Assembly: GCA_044354985.1 (NCBI GenBank)
Contig: JBIKYZ010000002.1
Coordinates: forward strand, 2,324-66,323
Origin: Pseudanabaena sp.
GTDB taxonomy: Bacteria > Cyanobacteriota > Cyanobacteriia > Pseudanabaenales > Pseudanabaenaceae
DNA: 64,000 nucleotides
Reading direction: 5' to 3'
Both the position numbers and the translations under genes were made by a program. Below are positions 44,779-61,763 of the stretch, in pieces. Below the pieces are notes generated by a model. The model was given only the letters and a program-made list of their open reading frames with translations, was not told where the DNA came from and ran no database searches. How positions within the stretch are numbered: position 1 is the stretch's first letter; each line of letters begins with the position of its first letter.

Positions 44779-44887
44779 TTTTGAAAACAAGGAAGTCGAT
44801 TTTTATGATGTGGCAAAGCCGCGCTATCAAAAATCGAGTTCCTTGTTTTCAGCCCTTACAAAAATTTGCCCCACTTATTTTGAAGGA

Positions 44888-45820
44888 ATGAAAACTGATA
44901 AACTTTTCTATCGCATCTTTCTATCACAACCTGATCTAATCTCAGAGTTAGTACCAGATATTCCTGCAAGCTGTGAGTTTGACTATAGTGCGCCCGTGGT
45001 CAAAGAGACTGAACTTCGACTAGATGGAGTACTCACGCCGATCTCTGACGATCTGAGATTGCCATTGGTATTCTTAGAAGCACAAATGCAAAGTGATGAT
45101 GATTTTTATGGTCGTTTTTTTGCAGGCATATTTCTTTATTTGCGACAGTATAAGGTTACTAGACCTTGGCGCGGATTGCTGGTTTTGCGCCGCCGTAGCC
45201 ATAACTTAGGGACTGATTTAGCTTATCAAGTTTTGCTAGGTACTTGGGTGCATCGACTTTACTTAGAGGATTTGATTGATATGGGGAATTTGAGCCCAAA
45301 CCTGTCTTTGTTAAGGCTGTTGGTTGTTTCAGATCAAGAAGTGAGTGAATCGGCTCAGGCGATATTGAGGAATAGTAATACGCCAGCAGAGTTTCGGATG
45401 CGGCTAGACTTAGTAGAGGCTATACTGATAAATAAATTTCCCCAGTTGAGTATTGAAGAGGTCAGACTGATGTTAAATCTTAAAGAGGCAGATATAACTC
45501 AAACACGTTTTTACCAAGAAGTTTTCCAAATCGGGCAGCAGGAAGGTCAGCAGATCGGTGGAGAGCTTGGTCGAAAAGTTGGGAGAAAGATTGGTCAAAA
45601 GATTGGGAGAAAGATTGGTCGCCAAGAGGGTCGCCAAGAGGGAGAAATTGAAATAGTGTTACGTCAGCTTTCCCGACGCTGTGGACAACTGTCGATCGCT
45701 CAACAAAAAAAGGTGCGATCGCTACAAATTAAAGACATCGAGAATCTTGGTGAGGCTTTACTAGATTTTAAGGGGATGGCTGATTTGGAGACTTGGTTGG
45801 ATAGTATGGCTAAGGTTTAG
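44888..45820 (+). CDS. Rpn-family recombination-promoting nuclease / putative PD-(D/E)xK transposase-like protein
   Basis: MKTDKLFYRIFLSQPDLISELV...RLDGVL...VFLEAQMQSDDDFYGRFF is typical of the cyanobacterial Rpn/DUF2887 type, with a DUF4351-like C-terminus. It contains the low-complexity run GRKVGRKIGQKIGRKIGRQEGRQEG. The longest ORF starts at 44810. Confidence 0.7.
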   Translation: MKTDKLFYRIFLSQPDLISELVPDIPASCEFDYSAPVVKETELRLDGVLTPISDDLRLPLVFLEAQMQSDDDFYGRFFAGIFLYLRQYKVTRPWRGLLVLRRRSHNLGTDLAYQVLLGTWVHRLYLEDLIDMGNLSPNLSLLRLLVVSDQEVSESAQAILRNSNTPAEFRMRLDLVEAILINKFPQLSIEEVRLMLNLKEADITQTRFYQEVFQIGQQEGQQIGGELGRKVGRKIGQKIGRKIGRQEGRQEGEIEIVLRQLSRRCGQLSIAQQKKVRSLQIKDIENLGEALLDFKGMADLETWLDSMAKV

Positions 45821-45987: not shown

Positions 45988-46824
45988 TCAAGAAATATTC
46001 AAATAATCGTAAATTTCGTCTAGAGAGAAACACATTTTATTAATTGCCTGATATTTAGGTTCTCCTTCATTAACGCCATGAAAGGTTAAATAACCTCTTT
46101 CGTAAGCCCAGTCATTGAAGCATAGTCTAATGTGTAAACCTTCTTCTTCTAAAACAGAAGGTAGACTAAGAAAGAATTTCCTGTAAATACCAACATACTT
46201 ACTTTCACAGAGATATGCTTTGTTAAAGCCTATTGCCACGCATTGAAGATTTGGATTTGATTTAAGGTAGTCAAACATAGCTTGAGTGCAGCAGGCAGAA
46301 GCGATGTTGAATATGTCATCAAGGACAATTAGACCACCATTAGATAGGTATTTATATGATAGTTCTATGTCAGAGTAAACAGCATCATAGCTATGCTCAC
46401 CATCAATATGTACAAATCTAAATATGGGGTTATAGGCTCCTAATAATTGAGAATGTCTCTTGGCTACAATTCTAGAGTCAACTGGATAGGTGAGTATTCG
46501 ACTTTCATCAACCTCTGAAAATGCAGAGACAACTTGTTTAACTGCTTCGATATCTTGGTAGGGATCAAGTAAAAAAGCTCGTTCTTGGTTCTGTAAAGAG
46601 CAACATAAGAATGCAATAGTTGCTCCTTTAAGAACTCCGATCTCCAAAATATCCCCTTGGATATCATAAAGGATTTGTAAACCAAGTAACTGATCGAAGG
46701 TGTGCCACACTTGAAGGGTATTAATACCTTGATTTAATGGAAAAGTCTGTTGATGTTTTTGAATGAGACTCATTAATTTAATTGGGTAATTAGTTGAATA
46801 GTTTTTTAACTCTGCCATAATCAA
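45988..46824 (-). CDS. Class I SAM-dependent methyltransferase (Methyltransf_24-like)
   Basis: ILEIGVLKGATIAFL, HIDGEHSYDAVYSDIEL and GGLIVLDDI. Confidence 0.65.
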   Translation of the reverse strand: MIMAELKNYSTNYPIKLMSLIQKHQQTFPLNQGINTLQVWHTFDQLLGLQILYDIQGDILEIGVLKGATIAFLCCSLQNQERAFLLDPYQDIEAVKQVVSAFSEVDESRILTYPVDSRIVAKRHSQLLGAYNPIFRFVHIDGEHSYDAVYSDIELSYKYLSNGGLIVLDDIFNIASACCTQAMFDYLKSNPNLQCVAIGFNKAYLCESKYVGIYRKFFLSLPSVLEEEGLHIRLCFNDWAYERGYLTFHGVNEGEPKYQAINKMCFSLDEIYDYLNIS

Positions 46825-46842
46825 CGGACTATTAAGCTTAGC

Positions 46843-49041
46843 TTAGCAAGCTAACAACTCCGTTTTTCTTGCTTCAATAAACAAGTCGTAATCATATCGG
46901 TGAAAAGCATAGACATCAAGGTAATAGATTGTAACTTCTCCGCTTTGATAGCGATTACATTTTAAACAATGATTTAGATCATCAAATCTATCACGAAGAT
47001 TATAGTCAATACTGATTAGATAATTGCCAAAGTTATCATAGATTAGAAAGTGTGAATAGTCAGATTCTACTAACCTGTCTATAGTGCTGATGGCTTCATT
47101 TATACCACTCGATCTAAAGCTGATATCATATTCAAAACATATTACAGGTCGAATACTTTTTATAGTTTCTATAGAATCTAGGATAATTTCAAAATCAAAA
47201 CCGTCACAATCGATCTTAAGTAACTTAGGCTGACAGAATTGAGGATATGCGTCTAAAATTGATTTTAAACTCTTGAGCTTGATGTTGTTTTCGGGGCTTT
47301 CTGATGTAGTAGCACTTGTTATAGATGCTGTCCCCCCTTTACTCGATACGTTATCCAAACTAATTATTTGATCATCTTCGCCGATAAAGTAAGGAGCAAC
47401 TTGTATATTTCCAATAATAGAAGCATTGTGTTTTAGAAATGGAATAAAATCAGGATGTCCCTCTATACACAAGATAGGGACATTTACATACTTGTTTATT
47501 AATGCTGCGCTATCTCCGACATTTGCACCAATATCAATAGCTGTAGAGTTACTATACTTAGTAAATACAATTTTAGAAATATTTCCTAATACAGTGTCAT
47601 ATCTCTTCCAGCGACTTTGATATCTATCCAACATATGATCTATTGGTAAGAGGATTTCACAGTTAGCAACTTTATATTTTTTTGCTTGTGGTTGAGGTGT
47701 TTTCTCTTCTAAGAACCAATTACCAGTTTTCTGTAACATATATTTTTTATTCTGTAACCCTACAGTCCAGTTAGCATGAAATATCATCGGACTTGGCTGC
47801 CCAGACTGAATTGATGATAACTCTGGATCAGATACAGACATTAAGCTTGCTGACATTCCATTAGCAAATAGAAGTTCTGACAGAGGAAATATATTTGTGA
47901 ATAAATATGGGCTGGATTGAATAAGATGGTTGATGACTGTTTGATCGTGATATTCAGGGTTAGTTTGAATAAAGTGACTGTGAAGATTAGTCAAAGAATC
48001 CAGCAATCTATGAGAAAAATCATTATTCACGAAACTCATAAACCCCGTGCAGAGATGTGGTGGAAAGTTAGCAGTTCCCTCGGTTTGGATTGATAGAGAA
48101 TAATGTTTGCCGATTTGTCGCAACAGGGGAAGTGGATTTTGTCGCCATGCGATATCAACATCTGTATAGACTACTTTTTTCACTCCTTGATTTAGTAAAT
48201 GCTTAATGGCAATCCATTTAGAGAGAGTGAATTTACCAAATTCGCCAGTGCCATAGTTGTGATAGTTATTATTATTCTGTAAATCGATATTCTCAACTAT
48301 ATCCTCGATTGCTGTAATATTACCGATACCATATTGCGATCGCAGTTCTGATAGTTCTTCAATAGCAGATGATGGCGTGAATATCTCTATATATTGAGGA
48401 TCGATATTGCAATTTCTAATACTTACAATTGTATTCTCTACAAATTCCTTTAACCCTCCTGATACAACTAATAAGATTCGATAGTCGTTTAGTTTAGAGT
48501 CTGCTTGGATTTGATATAAAATCCCTGTCATGATTGCTAAGGCTTGCTTATTGCCATCACTTAATGTCAGTATTTCAGGTAGCTTAGTTTGTGCAAAGTT
48601 TTTCCAGATTTGCGAATGCCTAGGTAAATAGATCAATCCTAAGTCATTGTTTGAATCTGAACTCTGAAGAGATTCTGACAAGTATCTATAGGCAAGATCT
48701 TTTGCTTTATCTAATTCTCCTGTTAATACACAGACAATAGCAAGATGAGCTTTGCACAAAAGACTATTTGTAATGTCTATTCCTTTTTTCAGGGCTTCAA
48801 TTGCATACTCTAGATATAGCCCTTTCTCGTTAGAATCTTCACTATTGTCTGCGGCAATCAAAGCCATGACTGCAACATTGTTAAAATCTAGCGCTGATTT
48901 TGGCTCATTCCAGTTTGTGCCTTCGATGTCAATGTCTAAGCTGTCCAGAAAATCGATATTAAAGCAGCAAGACTCGACATACTGGCAGTACATCAAGGCT
49001 TCATCCATAGTTTCCATTTCTGATAGATAGTTGTCTAGCAT
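46843..49041 (-). CDS. Multidomain protein: TPR-like N-terminus, nucleotide-diphospho-sugar glycosyltransferase, FkbM-family methyltransferase
   Basis: The middle domain has a DxD context (VVYTDVDIAWRQNP). The C-terminal FkbM-type motifs are AIDIGANVGDSAALI and LLKIDCDGFDFEIL. Confidence 0.6.
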   Translation of the reverse strand: MLDNYLSEMETMDEALMYCQYVESCCFNIDFLDSLDIDIEGTNWNEPKSALDFNNVAVMALIAADNSEDSNEKGLYLEYAIEALKKGIDITNSLLCKAHLAIVCVLTGELDKAKDLAYRYLSESLQSSDSNNDLGLIYLPRHSQIWKNFAQTKLPEILTLSDGNKQALAIMTGILYQIQADSKLNDYRILLVVSGGLKEFVENTIVSIRNCNIDPQYIEIFTPSSAIEELSELRSQYGIGNITAIEDIVENIDLQNNNNYHNYGTGEFGKFTLSKWIAIKHLLNQGVKKVVYTDVDIAWRQNPLPLLRQIGKHYSLSIQTEGTANFPPHLCTGFMSFVNNDFSHRLLDSLTNLHSHFIQTNPEYHDQTVINHLIQSSPYLFTNIFPLSELLFANGMSASLMSVSDPELSSIQSGQPSPMIFHANWTVGLQNKKYMLQKTGNWFLEEKTPQPQAKKYKVANCEILLPIDHMLDRYQSRWKRYDTVLGNISKIVFTKYSNSTAIDIGANVGDSAALINKYVNVPILCIEGHPDFIPFLKHNASIIGNIQVAPYFIGEDDQIISLDNVSSKGGTASITSATTSESPENNIKLKSLKSILDAYPQFCQPKLLKIDCDGFDFEIILDSIETIKSIRPVICFEYDISFRSSGINEAISTIDRLVESDYSHFLIYDNFGNYLISIDYNLRDRFDDLNHCLKCNRYQSGEVTIYYLDVYAFHRYDYDLFIEARKTELLAC

Positions 49042-49321
49042 TAGTTGTAATTTCCTAGCTTTTCGCTGTAGATGTTCTAACGATGTAATGATTCTTCTGG
49101 TAAATTAGCTTTGCTTTTAGGAAAGTATGAAGCCAATTTTTGAAAATGTTGAACGTTTTATATTGATGCTTTTTTGCTATGAACTAAAACTGGCTTAATC
49201 ATTTGTTTAGCAGAAAATCTAGATTGAAAAAGCTGCTGGTCTTCAGATGGCAGGTTTAAAATTACTTCTATGAGTGAATCAACAAGTTGTACATTCATTG
49301 TTCTGTATCCAATTTACTGTT

Positions 49322-52300
49322 TTATCTAGACTCATCAAAAAGTTCTTGCAATAAATTATACATATCTTGTGCTAATTTTTTAGGATTCCAAAGCGGAGCC
49401 AGATTAGCAGGATCTTTAGAGTCAATCAATTTTTGCTTAATTGAATTTCTGAACTCTGGCTCTAAACCATACTTAACAGCCCATATCATATATTCTTCCC
49501 AATTATGGGCAATCCCTGCATCAATACCTAATGCTTGCAAGAAGGAATAGCCCATTCTAGCGAAGGATTGTTCGCCCACCAGTGTTACTACTGGCAAATT
49601 GAACCACAGGACTTCGAGATTGTGACTGCCTCCATTGTAGGGGTAGGAATCTAGGAAAACATCCGCGATCGCATAAATACCCCGATGTTCTTCTTCAGTT
49701 TTGTAACTGGGTAAAAATTTGACGCGATCGCTATCTATCCCAATCTCATCACAGATTTCGTTATAAATGCTGCTTATCACTTCACGATCACCACTACCTT
49801 TATGTAGTAGTACGGAATTAGGCACTTGCTGCAAAATGCTAATACAAGCTTTTGCACTATCACGGTTAAACTTACGTGCTGGAGCCGCATAGAGATAGGC
49901 AACTTGATCGGACGCTATGCCAAGTTTCTCTCTTTCAATGTCTCGATCAATTTCTATAGCCTCAAAGCCTGATACTGCCATATGAGCATCAGGTAATCGA
50001 AGTATTTTTTCTACATAATGCTCATCTACGCCTTCAGGATGGGTGAAGCGATCGCCGAGCCAATAGTTATCAGGAGAAATAAATGGTGCATCAAAACCGA
50101 GCCAAGATAGCCGAATTGAGGCTAATTGCTTTCGACAGAGAATATGGGTGTTGAGGGGGATCGTCACCGAATCAAGGTCAATGATTACATCTAGTTGGTC
50201 TTCAGTAATGTCTGAAACTAATCGTTTAATCCTTCCATCAAAATTAAATTTTTCATTTTCATACCAATAGTGTCTTTCAGCAATTTGTTCAAACTTTTCT
50301 GTATGTTCATCAGGCTGAATCGTACCAGTAGTATATAAATATATCTGAGGAGTAATTTTTGATAGTTCTCTGATTACATCAAGGCTGCACCAACCTACAG
50401 GATGACGAGCAAAGTGAGGTGATACAAAACCGATTTTGAGAGGTCTATCACCTGCTGATATTTCACGACTTTTATCGTATGAATTACCGATCTCTAATTT
50501 GGACTTAATAACTCTATCCTGATAGAGAGAACCAATAAGTTTAAAGAGACTGGTATTTAAATTTCGATTATCTCGTAAGCTAGAAAGTATAAATATAAAA
50601 GAATTATATAGAACTTCCACCTCAACAGCTTCTAAGCTGTTAAAATATTTGTATAAGAATTCCTCTAACTCAGGCAATTTAACAATTGCAATATCTGCTA
50701 GTCCTGAATGAATGTAGTTAGAGATAAAGTTGACCGTAGGACGAACCTTTTCTTTCTCATGGCAAGATTCTAGAAATTGATCTGCGAGTTTTCGACGTAA
50801 TTTAAAATTGTGATGTAGAGAGTTATTGCTGTCAGATAAGATATCATTATTGAAATTCCAATAGGCATCGACAAGATGAAAGTCTAAATGCAAAGCTTTA
50901 TTGTAACAGAAGGCTGCATCTTCCATTTGTTTTGCTTTAGCGAAGGTATAGCCGAGATTGCAATAAACCTTAGCATCATTAGGATTTATTGCTAAAGCTG
51001 ATTGTAAACAAGCAATCGCTCCTTCTAGTTCGCCATATTCAGTTAAGCTTGCTCCTAAACCAATTAAAGCTGTAACTGATTCTGAGTTAATCTCTAGAGC
51101 CGTCTGATAAGCCGTAATCGATAGTTCCCATTCACATTGCTTAAAGAAAGCACTACCCATAGCCAGAGGAATGTCAATGTCTTCAGGATTAATAGCAAAG
51201 GCTTGATCATAGGTAAAGATCGCCTCATCTAGTTTATCCTGACTGGCTAACACCAGTCCCAAGTTGTAGAGAGCATTACCATGGGCAGGATCAAGCTCAA
51301 TCGTAATTTTGAATGACTCAATTGCTTGATCAAGTTGACCTGATTGGAACTGAGCAATGCCCATGTTGTAATGGGCATCTATATATTCTGGATGGAGAGA
51401 TATTGCCGTTTGCCAACAGGCGATCGCAGCATCAAGTTTGTCTTTTTGAGCTAAACGAATCGCGTCTTGGTTTCGTAATTCAGCTTCAGCGATGAACAAT
51501 TCACGATCGGCAACAGGATCGATCTCAATGTCAGGGTCTTCAGAATCTAGCCAAATTTGCCACATCTGCTCATAGGCAGATTCCATATCTTTTGTAAACT
51601 GTCGCGAGTTCCAAAGTGGTGCAGTTTGCTTGCCCTGACGCAATTTGAGAATCACTTGATTTCTCAAATCAATATCAGTTCCCAATCTAATTCCCCATTC
51701 CACATATTCTTCATCTGTCCATGCAATGCCTTCAGTAATGCCTGCATTGATCATCATTGTATAGCTATTTCGCGATGCAAACTGTTCACCTACCCGCGTC
51801 ACCATCGGAATCCCCATCCATAGGGTTTCGAGAGTATGAGTTGCACCGTTGTATGGATAGGTATCAAGAACGACATCTGCAAGTATCAAATTAGCCCTAT
51901 GTTCTGCTTCGCTATTAGTAATCGGCAAAAAGCGTAAGCGTTCTTTTTCCACTCCTTCTGTTTCTGCCATTTGATAGAAGAACTCTTTGAGCGATTCTTG
52001 ATCGCCCATACTTTTAAGAACTAAATAGCTATTGGGAACTGATTTAACAATTTGCATCTGTAAGCGTATCGTGTCAGGATGACGCTTCATCGATGCTTGT
52101 GCGCTGAAATAGATAACGGCATCAGCAGGAATGTCGAGAGTATCGCGGCGAACTGTGGGAGTGGATGATTCAAAGCCATCAACAGCAATATAGGTCTGTG
52201 GCAATCGCCAAATTTTTTCCGTATAGTATTCGTCCGCATCTTCAGGCAAAACATAGGGATCGGCAATAAAATAGTCTATATTTTGAAGACCAACTGCGTC

Positions 52301-53794
52301 CCAACCAAGCCATGTTACATGTATTGGAGCTGTCTTAAGACTCGATAAGGCTGTGCCGTATGCACTAGTAATGCTGTCTAAGTCAATAAGTATATCAATC
52401 CCATCGCATTGTATTTGATTGGCTAACGATACAATATCTTTCTGAGAATTAGTATTAGCCTTGTAAAATTGTTCTATGTACCAAGATCTCAGTAAGTCAC
52501 TATCTTTGGACTCCCCGATATATCCATATAACTCAAATCTCTGACGATCATGATTTTGGATCAGCCATCTCGCTAAGTAGCCGACTGAGTGTCTTCTAAA
52601 ACAAGTCGATATATAACCAATTTTGATAGGGAGACCCGACCTATAATACTTTTTCCTAAGAAATAATCTTTTTTTGTAATTAGCTATATTCTTATTGAGT
52701 TCTAATTCAATTTTTTGAATTGCTAATTGACGTACATCTCTAAATAAATTATGTCGAATTTTGGGATTATCACTAAAATACTGCGAATAAAATCCCGTTG
52801 TCATTAGATAAAGAAAAGCCTCGTCAGTGGATATCTGATCTATTGACTGTGAAGAAGTTAGCTGCGAAATACTATCTTCATACTTTCCATAGGATTGACT
52901 CGCTTCTTTCCAATAACTACAGTTAACAATCAAGGCTCTAGTCAGCCACTCATAGGCAAAAACTCGATCTAAAAGGCGGCGATTTTGGGATAACTGCTCT
53001 AGTTCTCTAGCAATTAAGACTGCTTTATGGCTGTCTTTTCTTATGTATAAATCAATCTTCTGTTTGTATAAGTTAAAATTTTCGCTATTAATCTTTAATC
53101 CGATTTCCACACATTGAATAGCATCATCCTGTCTTTTGTTTTCATTTAAAAAGATAGTAAGATCACACAGCTTATTTGCTATTTCTAATCTATACTCATT
53201 ATGAAGTAAGCATATATTTTCAAATGCTTCTAGAGTCAAATAATCATAATCAGAAAGCTTGATAAATACTGTTTCTAATAGTCGAGAGATGACAGAAAAC
53301 TTTAGTCGATTGAAGCTTTGTAATTTATGTGCATTGAGCAAGTCTAGGTCTAACAGATTTTGAGAAGTAAAAGACTCTGATTTGATCAATAAAATAATTA
53401 TGCAAATTCGGTTGTCAAGATTATGTGAGTTTATCTCTAGTAAGCAATTACGTATCACTAGAGAATTTTGGTAATCTTTTAGTTCCTCAAGCCTATTTGA
53501 TTCTATCTCTAAAATATCATTAAGTTCTTGATTGAGTAAATCAACATCACTATGCTCTACTTTTATCTCTTTAATGAAACTGAGCCAAGTCGTCTTAGCT
53601 TGTTCTACCTTTCCTTGAAGTAGCTGGCATATGCCCAGATACCAGTGATTTGAGTTGGTTTTAGCGTCTATCTCTATAAGTTGCTCATATAGCGCTAAAG
53701 ATTCTTCATACCGTCTTTCAGAAAAATATGTACTAGCCTGCTCTACAAGTTTTTGAAATTGCGCTTTATTGTCAAAAAATATTGGGCTTAGCAT
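49322..53794 (-). CDS. Giant TPR protein with two GT41 (SPINDLY/O-GlcNAc-transferase-like) catalytic modules
   Basis: Architecture is TPR - GT41 - TPR - GT41. Each module has (L)PIKIGY(F)S..F.RH.VG and ...LD(T/S)YPYNG(A/G)(T/S)H(T/N)LE(T/V)LW..(I/L)P(M/V)VT..GEQ... followed by ...APLWN... . TPR consensus repeats lie at aa ~790-990. Confidence 0.8.
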   Translation of the reverse strand: MLSPIFFDNKAQFQKLVEQASTYFSERRYEESLALYEQLIEIDAKTNSNHWYLGICQLLQGKVEQAKTTWLSFIKEIKVEHSDVDLLNQELNDILEIESNRLEELKDYQNSLVIRNCLLEINSHNLDNRICIIILLIKSESFTSQNLLDLDLLNAHKLQSFNRLKFSVISRLLETVFIKLSDYDYLTLEAFENICLLHNEYRLEIANKLCDLTIFLNENKRQDDAIQCVEIGLKINSENFNLYKQKIDLYIRKDSHKAVLIARELEQLSQNRRLLDRVFAYEWLTRALIVNCSYWKEASQSYGKYEDSISQLTSSQSIDQISTDEAFLYLMTTGFYSQYFSDNPKIRHNLFRDVRQLAIQKIELELNKNIANYKKRLFLRKKYYRSGLPIKIGYISTCFRRHSVGYLARWLIQNHDRQRFELYGYIGESKDSDLLRSWYIEQFYKANTNSQKDIVSLANQIQCDGIDILIDLDSITSAYGTALSSLKTAPIHVTWLGWDAVGLQNIDYFIADPYVLPEDADEYYTEKIWRLPQTYIAVDGFESSTPTVRRDTLDIPADAVIYFSAQASMKRHPDTIRLQMQIVKSVPNSYLVLKSMGDQESLKEFFYQMAETEGVEKERLRFLPITNSEAEHRANLILADVVLDTYPYNGATHTLETLWMGIPMVTRVGEQFASRNSYTMMINAGITEGIAWTDEEYVEWGIRLGTDIDLRNQVILKLRQGKQTAPLWNSRQFTKDMESAYEQMWQIWLDSEDPDIEIDPVADRELFIAEAELRNQDAIRLAQKDKLDAAIACWQTAISLHPEYIDAHYNMGIAQFQSGQLDQAIESFKITIELDPAHGNALYNLGLVLASQDKLDEAIFTYDQAFAINPEDIDIPLAMGSAFFKQCEWELSITAYQTALEINSESVTALIGLGASLTEYGELEGAIACLQSALAINPNDAKVYCNLGYTFAKAKQMEDAAFCYNKALHLDFHLVDAYWNFNNDILSDSNNSLHHNFKLRRKLADQFLESCHEKEKVRPTVNFISNYIHSGLADIAIVKLPELEEFLYKYFNSLEAVEVEVLYNSFIFILSSLRDNRNLNTSLFKLIGSLYQDRVIKSKLEIGNSYDKSREISAGDRPLKIGFVSPHFARHPVGWCSLDVIRELSKITPQIYLYTTGTIQPDEHTEKFEQIAERHYWYENEKFNFDGRIKRLVSDITEDQLDVIIDLDSVTIPLNTHILCRKQLASIRLSWLGFDAPFISPDNYWLGDRFTHPEGVDEHYVEKILRLPDAHMAVSGFEAIEIDRDIEREKLGIASDQVAYLYAAPARKFNRDSAKACISILQQVPNSVLLHKGSGDREVISSIYNEICDEIGIDSDRVKFLPSYKTEEEHRGIYAIADVFLDSYPYNGGSHNLEVLWFNLPVVTLVGEQSFARMGYSFLQALGIDAGIAHNWEEYMIWAVKYGLEPEFRNSIKQKLIDSKDPANLAPLWNPKKLAQDMYNLLQELFDESR

Positions 53795-53898: not shown

Positions 53899-54477
53899 CT
53901 AGCTAACTCCTACAAAGTTAGCAGTAGCACACGAAGGCGCAGCATTAGTAGCTAGAGTAAATGCTTGACCAATTGCAGTTGCGTCTATGGAAATACCAGC
54001 ATTAACAGGGGGAAGTTTTGCTTCACATAAGCCAGCCAAGGTAGTCGCTTCATTGGAACCAGGAGGGGTAGCAAGGTTGACTGCACCTGCATAAACTTTA
54101 ATGCTAGGTTCAAGAGGAACTGCTACGCTATAAGCATTAGCGGCTGTACCAGTCACACCTCGGCTAGAGCCTGATGTTGAGTACACATAGTTTTCAGTGG
54201 TTTGAGCAATACCAATCGCTAAGGTTGCAAGGTCAGGACCGAAGCGTTGCTTTTCTAGGTAGTAGGCTTGTTGAGCGCGGTTTGCAGAACCAACATAGGT
54301 CTTAGCTTCAGATTGACGAGCTTTTGCAGCTTGGTTAAGGAAAGAAGGAAGTGCGATCGCAGCAAGAATACCGATGATGATGATAACAACGAGAAGTTCG
54401 ATCAGGGTAAAGCCCTTTTCGCCATTCTTCTTGTTGAGCATGTGTTGGATGAGCTTGGTCTTGAATTCAGATTTCAT
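53899..54477 (-). CDS. pilA: Type IV pilin (PilA-like)
   Basis: Prepilin leader ending ...GEKG/FTLIELLVVIIIIGILAAIALPSF. The C-terminal region has two Cys. Confidence 0.85.
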   Translation of the reverse strand: MKSEFKTKLIQHMLNKKNGEKGFTLIELLVVIIIIGILAAIALPSFLNQAAKARQSEAKTYVGSANRAQQAYYLEKQRFGPDLATLAIGIAQTTENYVYSTSGSSRGVTGTAANAYSVAVPLEPSIKVYAGAVNLATPPGSNEATTLAGLCEAKLPPVNAGISIDATAIGQAFTLATNAAPSCATANFVGVS

Positions 54478-54611
54478 AATTCTTTATTCCCGTGTATGTC
54501 AAGAAAGTTAACTTGTTGGCTTGTGAAAGTAACTTACCCATAAAAAAACAGGATGCTATCACTCTGACTAAAAATATTTTTGTGAGTTTCATCTCTTTTA
54601 CAACTGACTCA

Positions 54612-55184
54612 CTATTCCTGCAAAGAAAATCCTGTAGGGCATACCATCGTCTGTTCTCCTCCATTCAATGCTCCAGGAGGGATAGGACTAATATTTGGTG
54701 TATTCCCAATACAAAAGATGGTATCGATCCGCACTATTCCTGGAATACCTACTACTCCAACAAAAGCTTTGAGGTATGGAGACGTAGGTACTGCCACATT
54801 AGTAATTATTTGCTTGGGTTGCTGAGGCGTAAAGTTTCCATCCACACTACCCGCCAAAGCGCTGTAAGTATAGGAAGAAGAAGCAGTATCTACCCCTAGT
54901 CCCAAGTCGCCAATATTACTGGTAAATGTTCTTTTCTCTAGGTAGTATGCTTGCTGCAAGCGGCTCATAGTACCAATATATGCCTTCGCCTCGGCAAATC
55001 TTGCCTTGTCTGCTTGACTTAAAAATGATGGTAGCGCGATCGCAGCCAGCAAACCAATAATAATGATTACCACCAATAACTCAATCAGTGTAAAACCTTG
55101 TTCTTTATGGTTTACGTTACTAAAATGGCGATCGCGTAGCCATAAGCTGATGATATATTCCAATTCCAAATTATTAAAGTTCAC
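54612..55184 (-). CDS. Type IV pilin (second paralogue)
   Basis: ...KEQG/FTLIELLVVIIIIGLLAAIALPSFLSQADKARFAEAK. Unusually long (30-aa) predicted leader, and two C-terminal Cys. Confidence 0.8.
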   Translation of the reverse strand: MNFNNLELEYIISLWLRDRHFSNVNHKEQGFTLIELLVVIIIIGLLAAIALPSFLSQADKARFAEAKAYIGTMSRLQQAYYLEKRTFTSNIGDLGLGVDTASSSYTYSALAGSVDGNFTPQQPKQIITNVAVPTSPYLKAFVGVVGIPGIVRIDTIFCIGNTPNISPIPPGALNGGEQTMVCPTGFSLQE

Positions 55185-55250: not shown

Positions 55251-55832
55251 TTAAACCTCTCCAAAATATTCCAAAATATTAAGAATTCTCGTTTTTAGAT
55301 TGATCACATCTCGCGCATTACAAAACACATTAGTCTTGAGACGGCGATCGCTACATAGCCCAATCACTAAAACATTAATATGCTCAATATATGCAGCATT
55401 CAGTGCAGCTTTGCCCTCCTCATAAACAAGCGGTATACCTGGTTGAATAATGGCGAGATTTTGAAAAAATTGATTGGTACTAGCAAAACAATGATCTATG
55501 TATTGACTTAGCAAATTAAAATCCACATCGGTCTTGCCTTGAATATCGCCGAGGGTGTAAGCAATCATGTCAATCGGAGTGCGATCGCTAATAAAAGGTC
55601 TAGCCGATTCTTGCCAAACCTGCTCGGCAGCATCCAAAACATGATTCTGCACAAACAGCCTTGTTTGAAAGTCCATTGGTTCCGCAGGATCTAAGCCAAG
55701 CTGTGCAAAAACTTGGCTGGTTGTAGTGCGGACAAAGGGGATATTTAGGTGCGAGGATATCGCGATCGCTAATGTTGTTTTGCCAGTCCGATGTGCGCCA
55801 CAGAGTCCTAGATTGCCTTCAAGTTTAAACAT
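55251..55832 (-). CDS. Small P-loop NTPase / nucleotide-kinase-like protein
   Basis: Walker A GAHRTGKTT at residues 12-20, 193 aa. 8-nt overlap with the upstream Uma2 gene. Confidence 0.6.
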   Translation of the reverse strand: MFKLEGNLGLCGAHRTGKTTLAIAISSHLNIPFVRTTTSQVFAQLGLDPAEPMDFQTRLFVQNHVLDAAEQVWQESARPFISDRTPIDMIAYTLGDIQGKTDVDFNLLSQYIDHCFASTNQFFQNLAIIQPGIPLVYEEGKAALNAAYIEHINVLVIGLCSDRRLKTNVFCNARDVINLKTRILNILEYFGEV

Positions 55833-56688
55833 CGTCTGGATCGATACCTAAAGCTTGTAAACGCTCAGCAAGACGATTAGCACGTAGACTTTCCTGCTCA
55901 GCACGTAGACTTTCCTGCTCGGCGCGTAGACTTTCCTGCTCGGCGCGTAGACTTTCCTGCTCAGCACGTAGGCTTTCTTGCTCAGCACGTAGACTTTCTT
56001 GTTCAGCGCGTTGCTGATGTGTTTCAGCACGTCTACGCTCTTGGGCGGTGCGTTGCTGTTCTTGCCAAACCTGGATTTCTGATTGCTGTAAACGTTGGCT
56101 TAGTTCCACAGGCGACAAAAATCTCTGACCGTCGGGACGCGAGATGATTAAATCCTGTCCGATTGCCCAATCAAATCTAATTCCTAACAATGGACTAACC
56201 CAATTCAGCATTGATGGAATTTGGACGAGGCGATCGCCAACTCGCTGCCAGCCTTCTAAGATCAGGTCATCAGGATCGTAAATGTAATATTCCTGAACCC
56301 CATAGGTTTGATAAAAGTCAAACTTATCTTCAAGGGAATCTTGACCACGCCGATCTTTATTACTGGGTGACAGGATCTCAAAAACGACCTGTGGGGCAAT
56401 ATTATCCTCTAGCCATTGTTTATAAGAACCCCTACGACCTTTGGGACGACCTAGCGCTACCATTACATCAGGTGCAACTCGTTTTTGAGTACGGCGCACA
56501 GGATACCAAAGTAAATCTCCCGCTACAAATACATTTGGGTCATCGGCATACATGATCTCTAGATTTTCTTTGATGATCACAATCCAGCGATATTGTTCGG
56601 TATTGTCAGCCATAGGATTGCCATCACTGTCAGGATAATCGATCTCTGGAGCGATCGCTTCTTCAGATGTTAGAGGTTGCAGAGTCAT
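55825..56688 (-). CDS. Uma2 (DUF820) family endonuclease with a C-terminal heptad-repeat extension
   Basis: EIDYPDSDGNPMADNTEQYRWIVIIKENLE..., FEILSPSN and QEYYIYDP are Uma2 PD-(D/E)xK hallmarks. The C-terminus carries (AEQESLR)x6. Start chosen at MTLQPLTSEE (GAGGG SD); the longest ORF reaches 56784. Confidence 0.75.
   Translation of the reverse strand: MTLQPLTSEEAIAPEIDYPDSDGNPMADNTEQYRWIVIIKENLEIMYADDPNVFVAGDLLWYPVRRTQKRVAPDVMVALGRPKGRRGSYKQWLEDNIAPQVVFEILSPSNKDRRGQDSLEDKFDFYQTYGVQEYYIYDPDDLILEGWQRVGDRLVQIPSMLNWVSPLLGIRFDWAIGQDLIISRPDGQRFLSPVELSQRLQQSEIQVWQEQQRTAQERRRAETHQQRAEQESLRAEQESLRAEQESLRAEQESLRAEQESLRAEQESLRANRLAERLQALGIDPDDV
55880..56005 (-). repeat. Six tandem 21-bp repeats inside the Uma2 CDS
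   Basis: The unit GCACGTAGACTTTCCTGCTCA (plus strand) occurs six times with 0-3 substitutions per unit and encodes AEQESLR heptads. Confidence 0.9.
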
Positions 56689-56783
56689 GGATTTACCCTC
56701 ACCGAAACCTGTGCATGATTTATCCATTAAAACATAATCGCTAAACATGAAAGACGATGTTTTGTCGCCTTTCATGTTTAGCA

Positions 56784-58049
56784 TTAAGCACCCAATACCC
56801 GCTTAGCTCTGGCTAAATAGGACTGACGATCAGCTAAGCCATTTGTGCCGCCGTTGATGATACGGGTAATAGTAAGGACATCATCGCGATCGGCATGTCC
56901 ATTAAGTTTCCGAGTATCCCAAAACCAGCCTGCACTGAGACAGGCTAGATCGAAATCTCCTAAACGCTGAGGATTGTTGATCAAATCCACGCCCAAGGCT
57001 CGACCACAATCAAGATAGTTGGCTCTTCCCGTAACTTGGATCAAGCCACGCCCCTTAAACCTGACACCGTCGCCAGCCTGAGTATTACCAAGATCTCTTC
57101 TTCCTTCATAGGCTGCACCAGAGGCATATTCCTCGTTAGTGTTAAATCCATCGCTTTCATGTCCCAATTGAGCGAGGAAATGCGCTTTACGCAGAGGTGT
57201 CGTGATTGCGTAACGCTGCATTGTGTTATTCAAGTGGGGCAGCAATTTTTCAAGGCGATCACGTCGGGAATAAGGTGCGATCGCACTCAGTTGTTCTTGA
57301 GTAATCAACCCAGAAGCTTTAGTTAGATTGGTTTCAGTAGTTCGGGGGTATAAGCCCTCATATGGCTCTTGATCGAGACGACGGGGAGGCAGATTATTGA
57401 GAATCCGAATCGTGCTATCAACTAGTACATCCTTGGGGTTGAAATCATCTTTAAGTCCAGTAATCAATTGATCTAAGCGCCGCGCTGCTAATTTGCGGTG
57501 CTCAGTCAGATTTGGCGCTTGGTAAAGCCCTTCATAGGGCTTGCGTAAAATAGGGCGCAAAGTTAAGCCACTCATCACTCTGATTAAGTCATCAATTCGA
57601 CCGTCAGCACTATTATGTTTTGGGTCAGTGATCTGACCGATCGCTGCTACTAATGTCTGTGCCGCTTGTTTGCGCCATGTTGCCAAATCCGCCGCAGGGA
57701 AAAGTCCCGCATAGGGCGATCGCCCTGTTGGACGTGCGGGTAAATTTCGTAAAAAGCGAATCAAATCATCGATCGCCCCATCAAAAACGCTCCCTTCAAC
57801 ATCGGGAATCTTGGGCACGGAAGCCTGAAGAGTTAATGCCGCCCGACTGCGCCATGTTGGTAAATCTGCCGCAGGCAAAATACCTGCATAGGGCTGTCGA
57901 GTCTCTGTACGTGCGGGTAAGTTATTTAACACGCGCACGAGATCGTCCACCAGTCCATCTTTTTCATTGATCGTACTGCCGACAATTTTGGGAACCAGAA
58001 ATCCAAGGGTTGCGGCTGCTTGCGATCGCCAAATCTCAACTTGTTTCAT
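56784..58049 (-). CDS. Glycoside hydrolase family 19 (chitinase/lysozyme-like) with four ~59-aa N-terminal repeats
   Basis: C-terminal AHFLAQLGHESDGFNTNEEYASGAAYEGRRDLGNTQAGDGVRFKGRGLIQVTGRANY is the GH19 catalytic signature. The N-terminus has four repeats of WR..AA.TL...(D)G.(I/V)DDLIR.L..LP.R....PY.GL. Confidence 0.8.
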   Translation of the reverse strand: MKQVEIWRSQAAATLGFLVPKIVGSTINEKDGLVDDLVRVLNNLPARTETRQPYAGILPAADLPTWRSRAALTLQASVPKIPDVEGSVFDGAIDDLIRFLRNLPARPTGRSPYAGLFPAADLATWRKQAAQTLVAAIGQITDPKHNSADGRIDDLIRVMSGLTLRPILRKPYEGLYQAPNLTEHRKLAARRLDQLITGLKDDFNPKDVLVDSTIRILNNLPPRRLDQEPYEGLYPRTTETNLTKASGLITQEQLSAIAPYSRRDRLEKLLPHLNNTMQRYAITTPLRKAHFLAQLGHESDGFNTNEEYASGAAYEGRRDLGNTQAGDGVRFKGRGLIQVTGRANYLDCGRALGVDLINNPQRLGDFDLACLSAGWFWDTRKLNGHADRDDVLTITRIINGGTNGLADRQSYLARAKRVLGA

Positions 58050-58082
58050 TGCCTTGATCGGGTAATTTCCTGCGTAACACCA

Positions 58083-59015
58083 TCATCTTATGAAACGCCC
58101 AAAAATCAATTTTACAAAGAAAGGATAGCGGAAAAAGATTTTGCCTAATCCACTGACAATCCATTCGCGTAAACTAATTATTGCCACAGGCAAATATGGC
58201 TCCACCAAGGACTCAAGGGTAACGATGAAGCTATTTGCCCTTGCTTCGATAGGTATGGAAACCCTGATCGTAATCCAACAAAAAATTAAAATGATAACTA
58301 CCGCGATCGCCACCAGTTGAAAAACTTTACTTTCTAGAAGACCGAGTAAATTTGTGAAAAATTTCTGGCTGGATTTTGGTAGCGATGGCAAGGTCAGATT
58401 GAGTTTGGAATAAATCCACCAAATCATTAAGACCACAATCGGAGCAGCGCTCGCCATCGCCCAACATTGATTAGATAAATAAGCAGTTAAATCGGCTGAG
58501 AAACTAAATCTTTTCCCCAGATTTTGCAACGGATCACACCATGTAATTGTCGTTGTAAAAGATACAGCGGCGATCGCAAAAGGACGTAATTTTTCTTCAA
58601 CATAATCAGCGATCGCCGTTAAAAATTGCCGTGAAATTTGACTAACCAGAAAACTATATGCCCTTAAAATGCGATCGGCATGAGGATGTTTCAAGATATC
58701 TTGACAGACTTTTTGATTCAGATCGCCATCGATATTTATCAATGTTCTTAATATTAACTTCTGCTCAGCTTCAGGCAAACTAACAGTATTGTCAGAGTAA
58801 AAAGTCCAAATTACAATTGCCCCTTGACGTTGGGCAGCTATGCCTACACTAGAAGCCAATACTTGCAATAATTCCTGACTATTAACCCGATAAATAATCT
58901 CATTCTTATCCGCTAAACCATGCGTATCTAGCTCTATCTGGGCAAGAACACTTGGGTTAAGCCACAGCTTAATTTCATCATCAACAATAGCCAACCAATT
59001 GGGCATAGCCACCAT
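58083..59015 (-). CDS. Hypothetical multi-TM membrane protein
   Basis: 310 aa. Soluble N-terminal ~150 aa, then 3-4 hydrophobic segments (WAMASAAPIVVLMIWWIY, VFQLVAIAVVIILIFCWITI, ...). 33 nt upstream of the GH19 gene. Confidence 0.5.
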   Translation of the reverse strand: MVAMPNWLAIVDDEIKLWLNPSVLAQIELDTHGLADKNEIIYRVNSQELLQVLASSVGIAAQRQGAIVIWTFYSDNTVSLPEAEQKLILRTLINIDGDLNQKVCQDILKHPHADRILRAYSFLVSQISRQFLTAIADYVEEKLRPFAIAAVSFTTTITWCDPLQNLGKRFSFSADLTAYLSNQCWAMASAAPIVVLMIWWIYSKLNLTLPSLPKSSQKFFTNLLGLLESKVFQLVAIAVVIILIFCWITIRVSIPIEARANSFIVTLESLVEPYLPVAIISLREWIVSGLGKIFFRYPFFVKLIFGRFIR

Positions 59016-59149
59016 AATAAATTATCCAAGCTTGGAAAGTTGCTTCCCTGCGGTACGCAACCTTACAAATTTGGGTTTGTAATTAATTAAGTCCATCTGC
59101 ATCCGCCTTATGTTTCATTACAGAACATGCCAAGCATATTCTCTAAAAA

Positions 59150-60016
59150 TTATTTGGATCGGAATGGCATCAAGTCTTTGACTAGATTTACACAAGTCGT
59201 AATCAATCCCGTCCATTGCTTCTCAGCATTATCAACCGCTTGATGATGCAATTCAAAAATTAGCTTTGCAATACTCGGATCAATTTTGCTTCTATTTGGA
59301 GTAAACAAATCATCCAGAAATCGATTTGTCAAATCACCATCAAGTTGGAACTTAGTCTGAGCATAGATACGTTCACCATTCAAAGTAGACTGCTCAAACT
59401 CCCATAACTTACGAAGATATCGAATTGTTGGAGCGTCAGGAACTAGCTCGCCATCAGCATCTTTAGGTAGATCTACTTGGAGAACTTTTTTGGCAAGCTC
59501 CCCATAACAAACTTGTTCGACCTCAAATTGCTCTTTTTGCCTAGGATCGCTTAAATTTTGGCGATTACTGAATATGCGTTCAGCACGCTTATAAATTTCT
59601 AGATCTCGATTGTATCGATCAAGCTCAGTCTGAGTAGCTGCCGAACCTTTTTTTTGTAGCTCTTTACTACGATCAAGGAGCACTCTTTTGATGTCTTGTA
59701 AGCCCTCGTCAGTCTTATACATAACATTTTCGAGCAGATCAGCATAGAACTGTTTTGCATCAAATCTGGCGATCGGAATATGGCTAACGATCATCGTATT
59801 TACTTCTAGTGTCGTAATTTCTTCTAAAACATCTTTGATGGTTTCTCGAAATTTACGAAGAGTAGTACTTTCTCCAGCACCATCTTTGGTTGGTGCTGTT
59901 TTAGAAGCCGCAGGTGCTAATTCCGAAGATTTATTTACAGGCTTGCTACCAACAGCTTTAACCTGATTAGCATCATCTGCGGCATTACTTTTATTGTTTG
60001 TAGCCCGATCTCGCAT
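59150..60016 (-). CDS. Hypothetical protein, long paralogue of the 146-aa protein
   Basis: Disordered Lys/Ala/Ser-rich N-terminus. Shared blocks with the neighbour: F..(T/A)I..(V/I)...(I/L)..LE(V/I).T..V; T(K)(F/I).L.DGD(L/I).N; H..(A/Q)V(D/E).(A/G). Confidence 0.5.
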   Translation of the reverse strand: MRDRATNNKSNAADDANQVKAVGSKPVNKSSELAPAASKTAPTKDGAGESTTLRKFRETIKDVLEEITTLEVNTMIVSHIPIARFDAKQFYADLLENVMYKTDEGLQDIKRVLLDRSKELQKKGSAATQTELDRYNRDLEIYKRAERIFSNRQNLSDPRQKEQFEVEQVCYGELAKKVLQVDLPKDADGELVPDAPTIRYLRKLWEFEQSTLNGERIYAQTKFQLDGDLTNRFLDDLFTPNRSKIDPSIAKLIFELHHQAVDNAEKQWTGLITTCVNLVKDLMPFRSK

Positions 60017-60055
60017 ACAGATTCCTCAGTGACAGGTCGCATAAACCAGAAGCAA

Positions 60056-60496
60056 CTAGACCCGACTGAAGATGCGATCGCTACTAAAGCTAGCCGTATC
60101 TTCTTCAGGCTCTGATTCATTTTCACCATTTAACAGCCCTGTCACCTTTTGCCCAATATCGACAAGAGTCTTAAGATTATTGGCGATCGTCTCTGAACCC
60201 TTCTCAACTTGAATCTCATGAAAGCCGCGCAGTTCTGCATAGGGAGAGCCTTGCAAAAAGTCAGCTCCTAGCTCATTTTCGATATCACCATCAATCAGAT
60301 TAATCTTTGTCTTTAAGCGATTACCTGCCCTATGGGTCGTATCTCCTTCATGGGCAACCCAAGTCACAATTTCTAACTGCACAAGGTCAGAAAATATTTC
60401 AATCAAAGCATCACCAAAGTTTTTGGTTTCTTTGAGTTTGCTTTGAAAACGCACGGATGCAGTTACGGATACCGACGAGGAACTTGAGTACGTCAT
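60056..60496 (-). CDS. Hypothetical protein, short paralogue of the 288-aa protein
   Basis: 146 aa with a Ser-rich N-terminus. LVQLEIVTWVAHEGD...KTKINLIDGDIENELG...FHEIQVEKG. 39 nt upstream of its paralogue. Confidence 0.5.
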   Translation of the reverse strand: MTYSSSSSVSVTASVRFQSKLKETKNFGDALIEIFSDLVQLEIVTWVAHEGDTTHRAGNRLKTKINLIDGDIENELGADFLQGSPYAELRGFHEIQVEKGSETIANNLKTLVDIGQKVTGLLNGENESEPEEDTASFSSDRIFSRV

Positions 60497-60590
60497 AGAT
60501 GATACCTAATTATAAAAATCCTGATGAATTTTGATCAAGACAGATAACTGACTATTATTTTAAGCACTTAAACATAGACTTTTTCACAAT

Positions 60591-60639
60591 AAAATCTTTT
60601 GCTAAAATCTTTTATAAGTAAGTTTTCTATAAATCTTTT
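60591..60639 (-). promoter_or_regulatory. Three direct copies of (A)AAATCTTTT upstream of the 146-aa gene
   Basis: AAAATCTTTT at 60591-60600 and 60604-60613, and AAATCTTTT at 60631-60639. They lie 95-143 nt upstream of the start codon at 60496. Confidence 0.3.
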
Positions 60640-60697
60640 GTAAATTAGTTTTGACAAAAGTAATTTAAGTGATTTCACTAAACATCACTAAACAATT

Positions 60698-60961
60698 TTA
60701 ATGATAGTCAGATAGCTCAATTAATTCCATTGGCACAAAGCTTTCTTGTGGCAGCAAAATCAGTTGAGAGTAAATAAGTTTGCCAGTCATATCTATGCGA
60801 TTGATGGCTATTCCCATAGGTCGCGGTAGTTGCGCGGCATAGGAGTCAGCATAGTAGCGATAAATCTGCTTAGCAGCTCTGATAATCATCGGATCGACTT
60901 TTTTGATTACAGGTTCTGGCTGTCTCTCAATTTGTTCAAGGCGCTGGGCGGCATATGACAC
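60698..60961 (-). CDS. Hypothetical small protein
   Basis: 87-aa ORF. No family recognised. Confidence 0.35.
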   Translation of the reverse strand: MSYAAQRLEQIERQPEPVIKKVDPMIIRAAKQIYRYYADSYAAQLPRPMGIAINRIDMTGKLIYSQLILLPQESFVPMELIELSDYH

Positions 60962-61115
60962 AATGTAAACCCCTTAAATTTGACTATTATTTGCCTTATA
61001 AAAAGCTGCATCAGGACTTTAGCTGACTTTGTTTTTTTTAGCAAGATTTGAGCTAAGGATTATACATGAGTTGATATTTTTTGGGTTGCTATACAAGCAA
61101 AAATTAGCAAAAGAT

Positions 61116-61508
61116 TTAATTACCTTCGGCACTGGCTAGTTTAAGTCGAAACAGTTTACTGTAGAAGATTTGGGGGAAATCAACATAACCCTTGTCGCGA
61201 ATATTGGAGACAACTTCAATTAAATAGCCAACAAATTCTGAATTTTCTAATGTCATTTCATAGCTCATGTCAGCATCACCCTCGAAGGTCAAGCGACACA
61301 AAGCCAGATCGGACGGCAAGTTAGCCACGCGCCATACAGCCATAAAAGAAATAGGCGAGCTTCCTTCTACATGACGCTCGCCTGTAATTTCACCTTGTTT
61401 ATATAGGGAAATCGCATAGGGGAGAGCTTGACGCTTGTTTGGCTCTCGATAGTAGGGCATGTAGATTGAAACTTCTTGCGGTGGAGCAGCTTTAAGTTCG
61501 ATCGCCAT
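61116..61508 (-). CDS. Hypothetical protein
   Basis: 130-aa ORF. No family recognised. First gene after a triple-hairpin terminator array. Confidence 0.4.
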   Translation of the reverse strand: MAIELKAAPPQEVSIYMPYYREPNKRQALPYAISLYKQGEITGERHVEGSSPISFMAVWRVANLPSDLALCRLTFEGDADMSYEMTLENSEFVGYLIEVVSNIRDKGYVDFPQIFYSKLFRLKLASAEGN

Positions 61509-61607
61509 AGATGTTAGCGCCTTTATTAATATATGTTGCTGTGAATTTTTACAAAAAAGATTAGCAGGTTTTTGCCTTATTACAGCAATTAACGATCAAA
61601 CGAACCA

Positions 61608-61763
61608 CTAGAAAAATTTTGAAAGTGTTGCTTTGCAACACTTTCAAAATTTTTCTAGGTTTGGGGTTGGGGTTTAATTCACAGAAGTGTGGCAATACTT
61701 TTGTGAATTGGTAATGACTGATATTTATTAGTAGGGTGGGCATTGCCCACCCTACTAATAAAT
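61608..61763 (-). terminator. Array of three consecutive long hairpins after the ABC binding-protein gene
   Basis: Hairpins at 61723-61763 (ATTTATTAGTAGGGTGGGC-ATT-GCCCACCCTACTAATAAAT), 61676-61709 (the AATTCACA...TGTGAATT type, also at 24841-24874) and 61608-61658. Confidence 0.6.

Follow-up and report, generated by a model that had tools for sequence, protein, structure and literature searches.

We examined a 64,000-nucleotide (nt) stretch of a Pseudanabaena sp. genome (contig JBIKYZ010000002.1), referred to below as the window, and within it a run of eight minus-strand genes. In order of transcription, these encode the pilus factor EbsA, the proteins p87, p146, p288 and TM310 (named by length in amino acids (aa); TM, transmembrane), a GH19 glycoside hydrolase, a Uma2 nuclease and a P-loop protein (Table 1). 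An earlier note, made from the sequence alone, had proposed the run as a candidate undescribed system for lysis, abortive infection or defence, or cell-wall remodelling. All eight open reading frames (ORFs) lie at the coordinates claimed for them, and the gaps of 39, 134 and 33 nt, the next junction (a 1-nt overlap or a 95-nt gap) and the final 8-nt overlap all follow from those coordinates. Our comparisons make it quite probable that the run is a vertically inherited Pseudanabaena neighbourhood of independent units and not one lysis, defence or remodelling system. What does stand of the proposal is an undescribed conserved unit inside the run, the trio p146, p288 and TM310; it is not the GH19, Uma2 and P-loop end, nor the eight genes together. 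Homologues of the locus proteins bear Pseudanabaena names, and the locus is found in identical form on contigs from freshwater metagenomes.

Table 1. Features of the run and its flanks, in window positions
Feature	Positions	Strand	Description or basis
ebsA (130 aa)	61508-61116	(-)	known family; probably own transcription unit
p87 (87 aa)	60961-60698	(-)	GTG start; first gene of inferred operon
p146 (146 aa)	60496-60056	(-)	stand-alone novel domain; cassette gene 1
p288 (288 aa)	60016-59150	(-)	domain split by coiled coil; cassette gene 3 elsewhere
TM310 (310 aa)	59015-58083	(-)	N-terminal domain copy + C-terminal TM helices; cassette gene 4 elsewhere
GH19 (421 aa)	58049-56784	(-)	endolysin-type glycoside hydrolase, four N-terminal repeats
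Uma2, long-start ORF (319 aa)	56784-55825	(-)	ORF call
Uma2 from conserved start Met33	56688-55825	(-)	cross-species start comparison
P-loop kinase-like protein (193 aa)	55832-55251	(-)	AAA_28
Two type IV pilin genes (190 + 192 aa)	53899..55184	(-)	Pfam Pilin_GH + N_methyl; NCBIfam prepilin-type N-terminal domain
Tetratricopeptide repeat (TPR)-GT41 O-GlcNAc-transferase (OGT)-like protein (1490 aa)	49322..53794	(-)	Pfam Glyco_transf_41 twice + TPRs
Conserved extended -10 box TGTATAAT + leader	60962..61066	(-)	cross-species alignment
Hairpin with T-rich tail after GH19 stop	56739..56783	(-)	terminator scan, RNAfold
Three inverted repeats	61587..61763	undefined	between substrate-binding-protein (SBP) gene and ebsA

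A genome scan with the p288 alignment gave 46 species-level loci, and all window proteins were then run by tblastn. Conservation of the run falls into layers. Nearly all Pseudanabaena loci share the order RNase III/SBP, EbsA, p87, p146, p288, TM310, GH19, a variable slot, P-loop, pilA, pilA and OGT. In deeper Pseudanabaenaceae (L042, L045, L046 and L048), the part from SBP through EbsA and p87 to the TM gene is retained and is followed by unrelated housekeeping genes, and at two further loci (L049 and L050) only p146, p288 and the TM gene are found, without ebsA or p87. Six loci of other cyanobacterial lineages, including Lyngbya, a Synechococcales metagenome-assembled genome, Coleofasciculus, Prochlorotrichaceae and Trichocoleus, carry a four-gene same-strand cassette with varying neighbours, and EbsA, GH19, the P-loop gene and pilins were not found beside it there. 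The locus is core, vertically inherited synteny in the 46 genome loci, and only the Uma2 slot varies. Gene-order conservation, which the earlier note had named as a check, holds for the run within Pseudanabaena, but only the cassette is kept in other cyanobacterial orders. The eight genes as one system did not survive the comparison: they were not found to co-occur elsewhere, and some of them fall in unrelated families. The unrelated SBP and RNase III genes are equally syntenic with the run.

The cassette is the sole undescribed unit in the run and is conserved across cyanobacterial orders. Elsewhere, its four genes encode products of ~140 aa, 400-1300 aa and ~250-290 aa and a membrane protein of ~210-350 aa. 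Profile comparisons using hhalign matched p146 to outside gene 1 (99.9% probability, E=9e-32) and outside gene 2 (99.9% probability, E=5e-32), p288 to outside gene 3 (E=3e-31) and TM310 to outside gene 4 (98.3% probability, E=1.2e-14). Given E values of 1e-14 to 1e-32, we regard the cassettes as orthologous across these lineages. Gene 2 of the outside cassettes (L053:8517-9866, L054:8604-12539 and L055-L058) joins the p146 domain to a disordered stretch of 300-1200 aa that is polyacidic and contains Pro and Trp. It is not present in Pseudanabaena, where p87 precedes the cassette instead. In related database proteins, a tail of this kind often terminates in KRVPPPPPPPSRFPNQNN.

An exhaustive HMMER search with the p146 profile returned 547 proteins, most of them long, with the domain at the extreme N-terminus and, after it, a disordered tail that is polyacidic and contains Trp. 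All that have a named source are cyanobacterial and carry the label hypothetical, and no Pfam or NCBIfam family covers the matches. The earlier statement that none of the first five proteins of the run belongs to a recognisable family holds for p87, p146, p288 and TM310, none of which has a match in Pfam, NCBIfam, PADLOC or PHROGs; it fails for the 130-aa protein, which is EbsA. No relative of the cassette proteins was found by sequence in the PDB. Cluster names and literature give only "hypothetical protein" for the cassette, and the papers on EbsA, Ogt and cyanobacterial pili do not mention its genes.

Within the cassette, p288 and the N-terminal part of TM310 (TM310-N) carry the motifs of p146, namely an LEIxTWV-like β-strand, RTxINxDGDxxN and a helix with a conserved His; the common motif in TM310 is RTLINIDGDLNQKV. 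The earlier note had called p288 a paralogue of p146. BLASTP finds nothing between the two and full-length hhalign is weak, and the kinship is visible only after the p288 insertion is cut out, TM310 is added and controls are run. With the insertion removed, p146 and p288 align over 87 collinear columns at E=0.0067 (E=0.003-0.007 for the relation overall). TM310-N aligns with p288 at 84% probability and E=7e-6 and with p146 at E=0.0025, and in an independent set outside gene 3 aligns with outside gene 4 at E=3e-5. The control profiles, from the unrelated EbsA and P-loop proteins, gave E=0.08-0.5. We also tried p87 as a further member of the family and rejected it, as its E values against the three families (0.12-0.28) are at control level.

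AlphaFold2 models of p146 and p288 (predicted local distance difference test scores of 75.7 and 76) have a common core topology of helix, strand, two-strand hairpin and long helix. In the p288 model, a coiled-coil hairpin of ~130 aa is inserted after the first strand. Because motifs, profile comparisons and predicted topology are common to both proteins, the proposed paralogy is probably right, and it appears to extend to the membrane protein. We therefore describe p146, p288 and TM310 as paralogues built on one novel α-β3-α domain of ~100 aa, in soluble, coiled-coil-interrupted and membrane-anchored forms. Foldseek gave no significant PDB match for the p146 or p288 model and no significant BFVD match for p146. 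Hydropathy places hydrophobic segments of TM310 at residues 183-202 and 222-258, plus weaker ones, which confirms a multi-TM protein; its cytoplasmic domain is ~180 aa. The three proteins would co-assemble through their common domain into a membrane-tethered hetero-oligomer, with TM310 as the anchor and p288 as an extended arm. The paralogous design, with soluble, coiled-coil and membrane-anchored subunits, makes such a complex directly testable.

The P-loop protein at the other end of the run carries Walker A and DR motifs. Its match to AAA_28 (PF13521) is marginal, at 28.9 bits against a cutoff of 27 (32.7 bits for the homologue at L140), and bears out the earlier identification of a P-loop protein. 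Thymidylate_kin gave no hit in either Pfam or NCBIfam at E up to 0.1; the matches, at 8.6e-8, are to PHROG families that bear the label thymidylate kinase. A PDB sequence search with the profile of the P-loop protein found nothing beyond Walker A. A metagenome scan recovered homologues of 50-65% identity at 58 loci (L084-L141) from diverse bacteria with guanine-plus-cytosine contents of 32-56%. None of the 58 has GH19, pilins or other run genes beside the homologue. The recurring neighbour patterns are instead FabF-MltG-X, X-HolB-PSP1-MetG-RpiB and RpiB-GlyA-NrdR-X, where X is the homologue; YceG, DNA_pol3_delta2, PSP1 and FabF were confirmed as neighbours by Pfam. We take the positions FabF-MltG-X, X-HolB-PSP1 and NrdR-X to be the classic position of tmk, and the homologues hold this slot in ~30 of the 58 loci, many of them on metagenome contigs that are not cyanobacterial. 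The idea of a small NTPase acting as part of a module is not supported, since homologues elsewhere occupy the tmk position and have neither GH19 nor pilins next to them. The protein is probably a non-canonical (non-orthologous) deoxythymidine monophosphate or nucleoside monophosphate (NMP) kinase with a housekeeping role. Since it matches no canonical Tmk model, we do not claim membership of the Tmk family. Phage homologues lie among replication genes and not beside endolysins, and a phage-derived pair of GH19 and P-loop genes was rejected on this basis.

The first gene of the run, taken by the earlier note for an uncharacterised one, encodes EbsA, a type IV pilus biogenesis factor. The match to NCBIfam NF045587 covers residues 5-122 of 130 (3.6e-48, 162.7 bits against a cutoff of 33), and Pfam PF28241 is recorded for the identical protein. 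EbsA binds PilB and Hfq and is needed for pilus assembly, as described for S. elongatus, Synechocystis and N. punctiforme (PMC8092324, PMC11407516). Beyond the P-loop gene, the two pilins and the TPR-GT41 protein form the known pilA-ogt arrangement; in S. elongatus, too, ogt (0051) neighbours pilA1 (0048/0049), and PilA is glycosylated by Ogt (PMC9306852). The stretch 45988-53794 holds the OGT-like protein with its two GT41 modules, then a nucleotide-sugar transferase-FkbM methyltransferase fusion and a TylF-like methyltransferase, and together with the two pilin genes it looks like a pilin-glycan locus. Further downstream of pilA-ogt there are sugar- and methyl-transferases and no phage-like genes.

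Transcription of the middle of the run likely starts ahead of p87. In the spacer between ebsA and p87, a TGTATAAT box that does not vary is followed by a leader of ~95 nt. Across more than 20 Pseudanabaena species the leader is 90-100% identical, and it ends AAGGGG-N8-GTG, with GTG as the p87 start. Every other spacer in the run is unconserved and variable in length. No conserved RNA structure or small ORF was found in the leader, and an Rfam search of the spacers and leader gave no match. The p87 protein itself has a median identity of 90% over 29 loci and no family or PDB match, and within the loci examined it was seen in Pseudanabaenaceae only. At L046, p87 overlaps p146 by 4 nt and the genes from p87 to the TM gene abut or overlap. 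The genes from p87 to TM310 would form one operon, which may read on into GH19, with ebsA separate from it. The ultra-conserved leader is a potentially useful by-product of this analysis.

With ebsA on one flank and pilA-pilA-ogt on the other, the run could be read as one pilus-associated envelope operon, in which ebsA, the downstream pilins and everything from the p87 promoter to the P-loop gene act together. In that case the cassette would serve at the pilus base as an accessory complex of cyanobacteria, and GH19 would open the thick peptidoglycan for the pilus, much as dedicated lytic enzymes do for flagella and secretion systems. The adjacency of EbsA, p87 and the cassette is indeed retained across Pseudanabaenaceae, deep branches included, but no pilus gene adjoins the cassette in any of the six loci outside that family, and L049 and L050 have the cassette with neither ebsA nor p87. 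Cyanobacterial pilus factors are often lineage-specific, unannotated small proteins (EbsA, HmpF, Slr0845; PMC12288463), and the literature on cyanobacterial pili mentions no pilus-dedicated peptidoglycan hydrolase, both points in favour of this reading; however, GH19 lacks a signal peptide, its link to the locus exists at genus level only, and the P-loop protein belongs to a housekeeping family of the tmk slot. Adjacency confined to one family counts as weak evidence for a pilus role, given that SBP and RNase III, which are unrelated, show equal synteny. We consider such an operon unlikely. A tentative and rather doubtful proposal concerns the cassette only, as an undescribed, cyanobacteria-confined membrane-anchored complex with a new domain, its adjacency to ebsA reflecting a role at the pilus base, in surface motility or in secretion.

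The GH19 protein matches Pfam PF00182 (3.8e-10, 40.4 bits against a cutoff of 25.5), and its catalytic domain matches PHROG 181 at 7e-66 and PDB 9ms7, the PWe2 endolysin, at 6.8e-36. With an above-cutoff match, the catalytic Glu pair and the TGR motif, it belongs with the GH19 endolysin clade, and HES, NEEY and QVTGR are invariant in 35 orthologues. The four repeats reported by the earlier note, each ~58 aa and together spanning residues 1-236, are well supported: aligned in pairs they score 68-146, whereas shuffled sequences average 21 and reach 39 at most. Across the genus, the repeat region matches the catalytic domain in its degree of conservation. Pfam, PDB sequences, phage genomes and IMG/VR hold no relatives of the repeats, which may be a new wall- or partner-binding module. 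Judged from its sequence, GH19 is a constrained host enzyme of endolysin type. By analogy to its nearest relatives, which are endolysins, its substrate would be peptidoglycan rather than chitin, and cell-wall remodelling is possible as a role for GH19 alone. A hairpin with a T-rich tail, of 19 pairs in the terminator scan and -35 kcal/mol in RNAfold, follows directly on the GH19 stop, within the 95-nt spacer before the conserved Uma2 start, and is confined to the window and three close relatives (L010, L014 and L015).

The position of GH19 after a membrane-protein gene had been compared with a holin-endolysin pair. TM310, though, is orthologous to gene 4 of the cassette, which is free of GH19 in six other cyanobacterial lineages, and its large cytoplasmic domain is unlike a holin. 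Counting the deeper Pseudanabaenaceae, orthologues of TM310 occur without GH19 at L042, L045, L046, L048 and L053-L058, and GH19 is tied to the locus only in the genus Pseudanabaena. At 310 aa and with an N-domain homologous to p288 and p146, TM310 is not a small holin-type membrane protein co-occurring with an endolysin. That the locus is no prophage was correctly seen: there are no phage structural genes in the neighbourhood, and an IMG/VR scan found no relatives of the GH19 repeats or the p288 family.

GH19 might still be a domesticated phage endolysin that acts independently of the cassette, in controlled self-lysis (filament breakage or necridia) or lysis-type protein release. Its closest relatives are phage endolysins, the catalytic domain shares 54% identity with the hydrolase of Pseudanabaena phage Pam2, and it is strongly constrained across the genus. 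Since it lacks a signal peptide, its N-terminus being the first repeat, its access to the wall would depend on damage to the membrane or on a dedicated route. However, the adjoining membrane protein is a cassette orthologue and not a small holin-like one, phage genes were not found nearby, the N-terminal repeats have no phage counterpart, and what this explanation says of activity and regulation is read from sequence. It is, in our view, very unlikely.

The Uma2 identification stands, with a Pfam match to PF05685 (8.9e-17, 61.5 bits against a cutoff of 27) and a heptad-repeat tail that reads (AEQESLR)x6 in the sequence. Its start is conserved across species at Met33 (56688), which favours the 95-nt gap over the 1-nt overlap with GH19. 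We compared the GH19/P-loop junction in 34 species-level genome loci. Most have Uma2 alone, nine lack it, and six (L022, L023, L025, L032, L034 and L041) have an empty junction. A 207-aa ORF (MSYSDFTTLDKVQ..., example L007:13315-13941), for which no Pfam family was found, accompanies Uma2 in seven loci and is alone in L037; L020 has XisI (L020:13236-13700) and L018 a 276-aa ORF (L018:4126-4956). Three of the empty junctions show the stop codon of GH19 either overlapping the P-loop start (ATGA) or separated from it by 6-8 nt, and translational coupling of GH19 with the P-loop gene would be the ancestral state. Identity levels of Uma2 are out of step with those of the flanking genes, and Uma2 has its own conserved upstream sequence. 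The spacer is a landing pad for small accessory genes and Uma2 a variable insertion in it, which speaks against the earlier view of a nuclease coupled to the module. Elsewhere in the window, a DUF2887/DUF4351 gene (44810-45820) is likewise accessory-type, scattered among core genes; such genes are Rpn-type PD-(D/E)xK genes, typical dispersed accessory genes of cyanobacteria.

A search of PADLOC-DB 2.0 matched Uma2 to PDC-S03 at 9e-10, and matches to IetA and LmuB were at noise level (E 0.004 or worse). The note's first reading, an abortive-infection or defence module of membrane protein, hydrolase, nuclease and NTPase, could draw on this single-gene match and on an endolysin-type enzyme adjoining a nuclease that in the window overlaps the P-loop gene, but it is hardly credible, as no PADLOC system is matched by several run genes, Uma2 is missing at nine of 34 loci and shares its slot with other selfish genes, the P-loop protein is of housekeeping type and never with GH19 elsewhere, GH19 and TM310 are not together outside the genus, and the locus is core synteny, with no island-like variable distribution among close relatives beyond the Uma2 slot.

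Upstream of ebsA, the inverted repeats comprise a perfect 20-bp hairpin at 61723-61763, a 13-bp hairpin at 61676-61709 and a long hairpin centred on 61621-61645. The earlier note called them a triple-hairpin terminator array. Three inverted repeats are present, but they lack T-tails and were not flagged by the terminator scan, and the label is for this reason unverified. The central palindrome GAAAGTGTTGCnnnGCAACACTTTC (61621-61645, in a longer perfect stem) recurs in another species at a different site, L041:13513-13535, which lies between the GH19 and P-loop genes. It has the look of a hairpin element dispersed in low copy number.

Read as a neighbourhood of independent units, the run would divide as follows. 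The first unit is EbsA, a known accessory factor of type IV pilus assembly, and the second a putative operon from p87 to TM310. The third is GH19, a conserved endolysin-type host enzyme whose repeat domain is novel, and the fourth the P-loop gene, which probably encodes a housekeeping thymidylate/NMP kinase of a non-canonical kind. Uma2 would be a selfish or accessory insertion in the spacer between the GH19 and P-loop units, and the pilA-pilA-ogt genes that follow are the known pilin and glycosylation locus. Several points weigh on the other side. Within the genus, the run is collinear, on one strand and tightly spaced, and a single transcript from the p87 promoter to the P-loop gene is possible; the pilus genes at both ends could point to a functional theme instead of neutral synteny. 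The statistics for p146/p288 paralogy are modest (each E ~1e-2 to 1e-3) and depend on short motifs, the membrane-tethered hetero-oligomer is the most likely mechanism but purely inferred, and the thymidylate-kinase assignment draws on gene neighbourhood and phage annotations.

If the run is indeed a neighbourhood of independent units, the eight-gene block is not worth pursuing as a defence or lysis module, which saves the effort of phage challenge and whole-block deletion. The cassette, in turn, is a defined target for cyanobacterial cell biologists, being conserved across orders and encoding proteins of up to ~1,300 aa. Its domain is new, absent from Pfam and NCBIfam and without a relative among solved structures. 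The candidate non-orthologous thymidylate-kinase family is a further, potentially useful by-product.

Among known systems, the cassette can be set beside the cyanobacterial pilus accessory factors EbsA, Hfq, HmpF and Slr0845. Like them, it is confined to cyanobacteria, small or coiled-coil-rich and unannotated; it adjoins ebsA in Pseudanabaenaceae, and the first gene of the run is EbsA itself. However, its proteins have no sequence or fold similarity to any of these factors, and in six other lineages it lies away from pilus genes. The top Foldseek match of the p146 model is the α-β3-α fold of YbaB/EbfC, with secondary-structure elements in the same order. This match is a topological lead only, as it is not significant (E=1.3, TM-score of about 0.45 on the target, root-mean-square deviation 6-7 Å) and there is no sequence similarity.

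The GH19 arrangement resembles holin-endolysin cassettes of phages and lysis-type (type 10) secretion in that an endolysin-type enzyme without a signal peptide follows a membrane-protein gene, here by 33 nt. It differs in the membrane protein, which at 310 aa has a cytoplasmic domain of ~180 aa and orthologues without GH19, in having no phage context, and in the four novel repeats that stand in place of a known wall-binding domain. The P-loop homologues take exactly the position of tmk in many bacteria (fabF-pabC-mltG-tmk-holB; tmk...holB-yaaT), and those of phages are annotated as thymidylate kinase, but the P-loop protein matches AAA_28 and not Pfam Thymidylate_kin, and the gene upstream in Pseudanabaena is GH19 and not mltG. 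GH19 in Pseudanabaena and MltG in other bacteria are both cell-wall-acting and hold parallel positions upstream of the P-loop gene. The window Uma2, finally, resembles the PDC-S03/Uma2 single-gene candidates of PADLOC in its Pfam Uma2 domain, its PDC-S03 match and its patchy occurrence, and it is set apart from them by its C-terminal (AEQESLR)n tail and its fixed landing slot between core genes.

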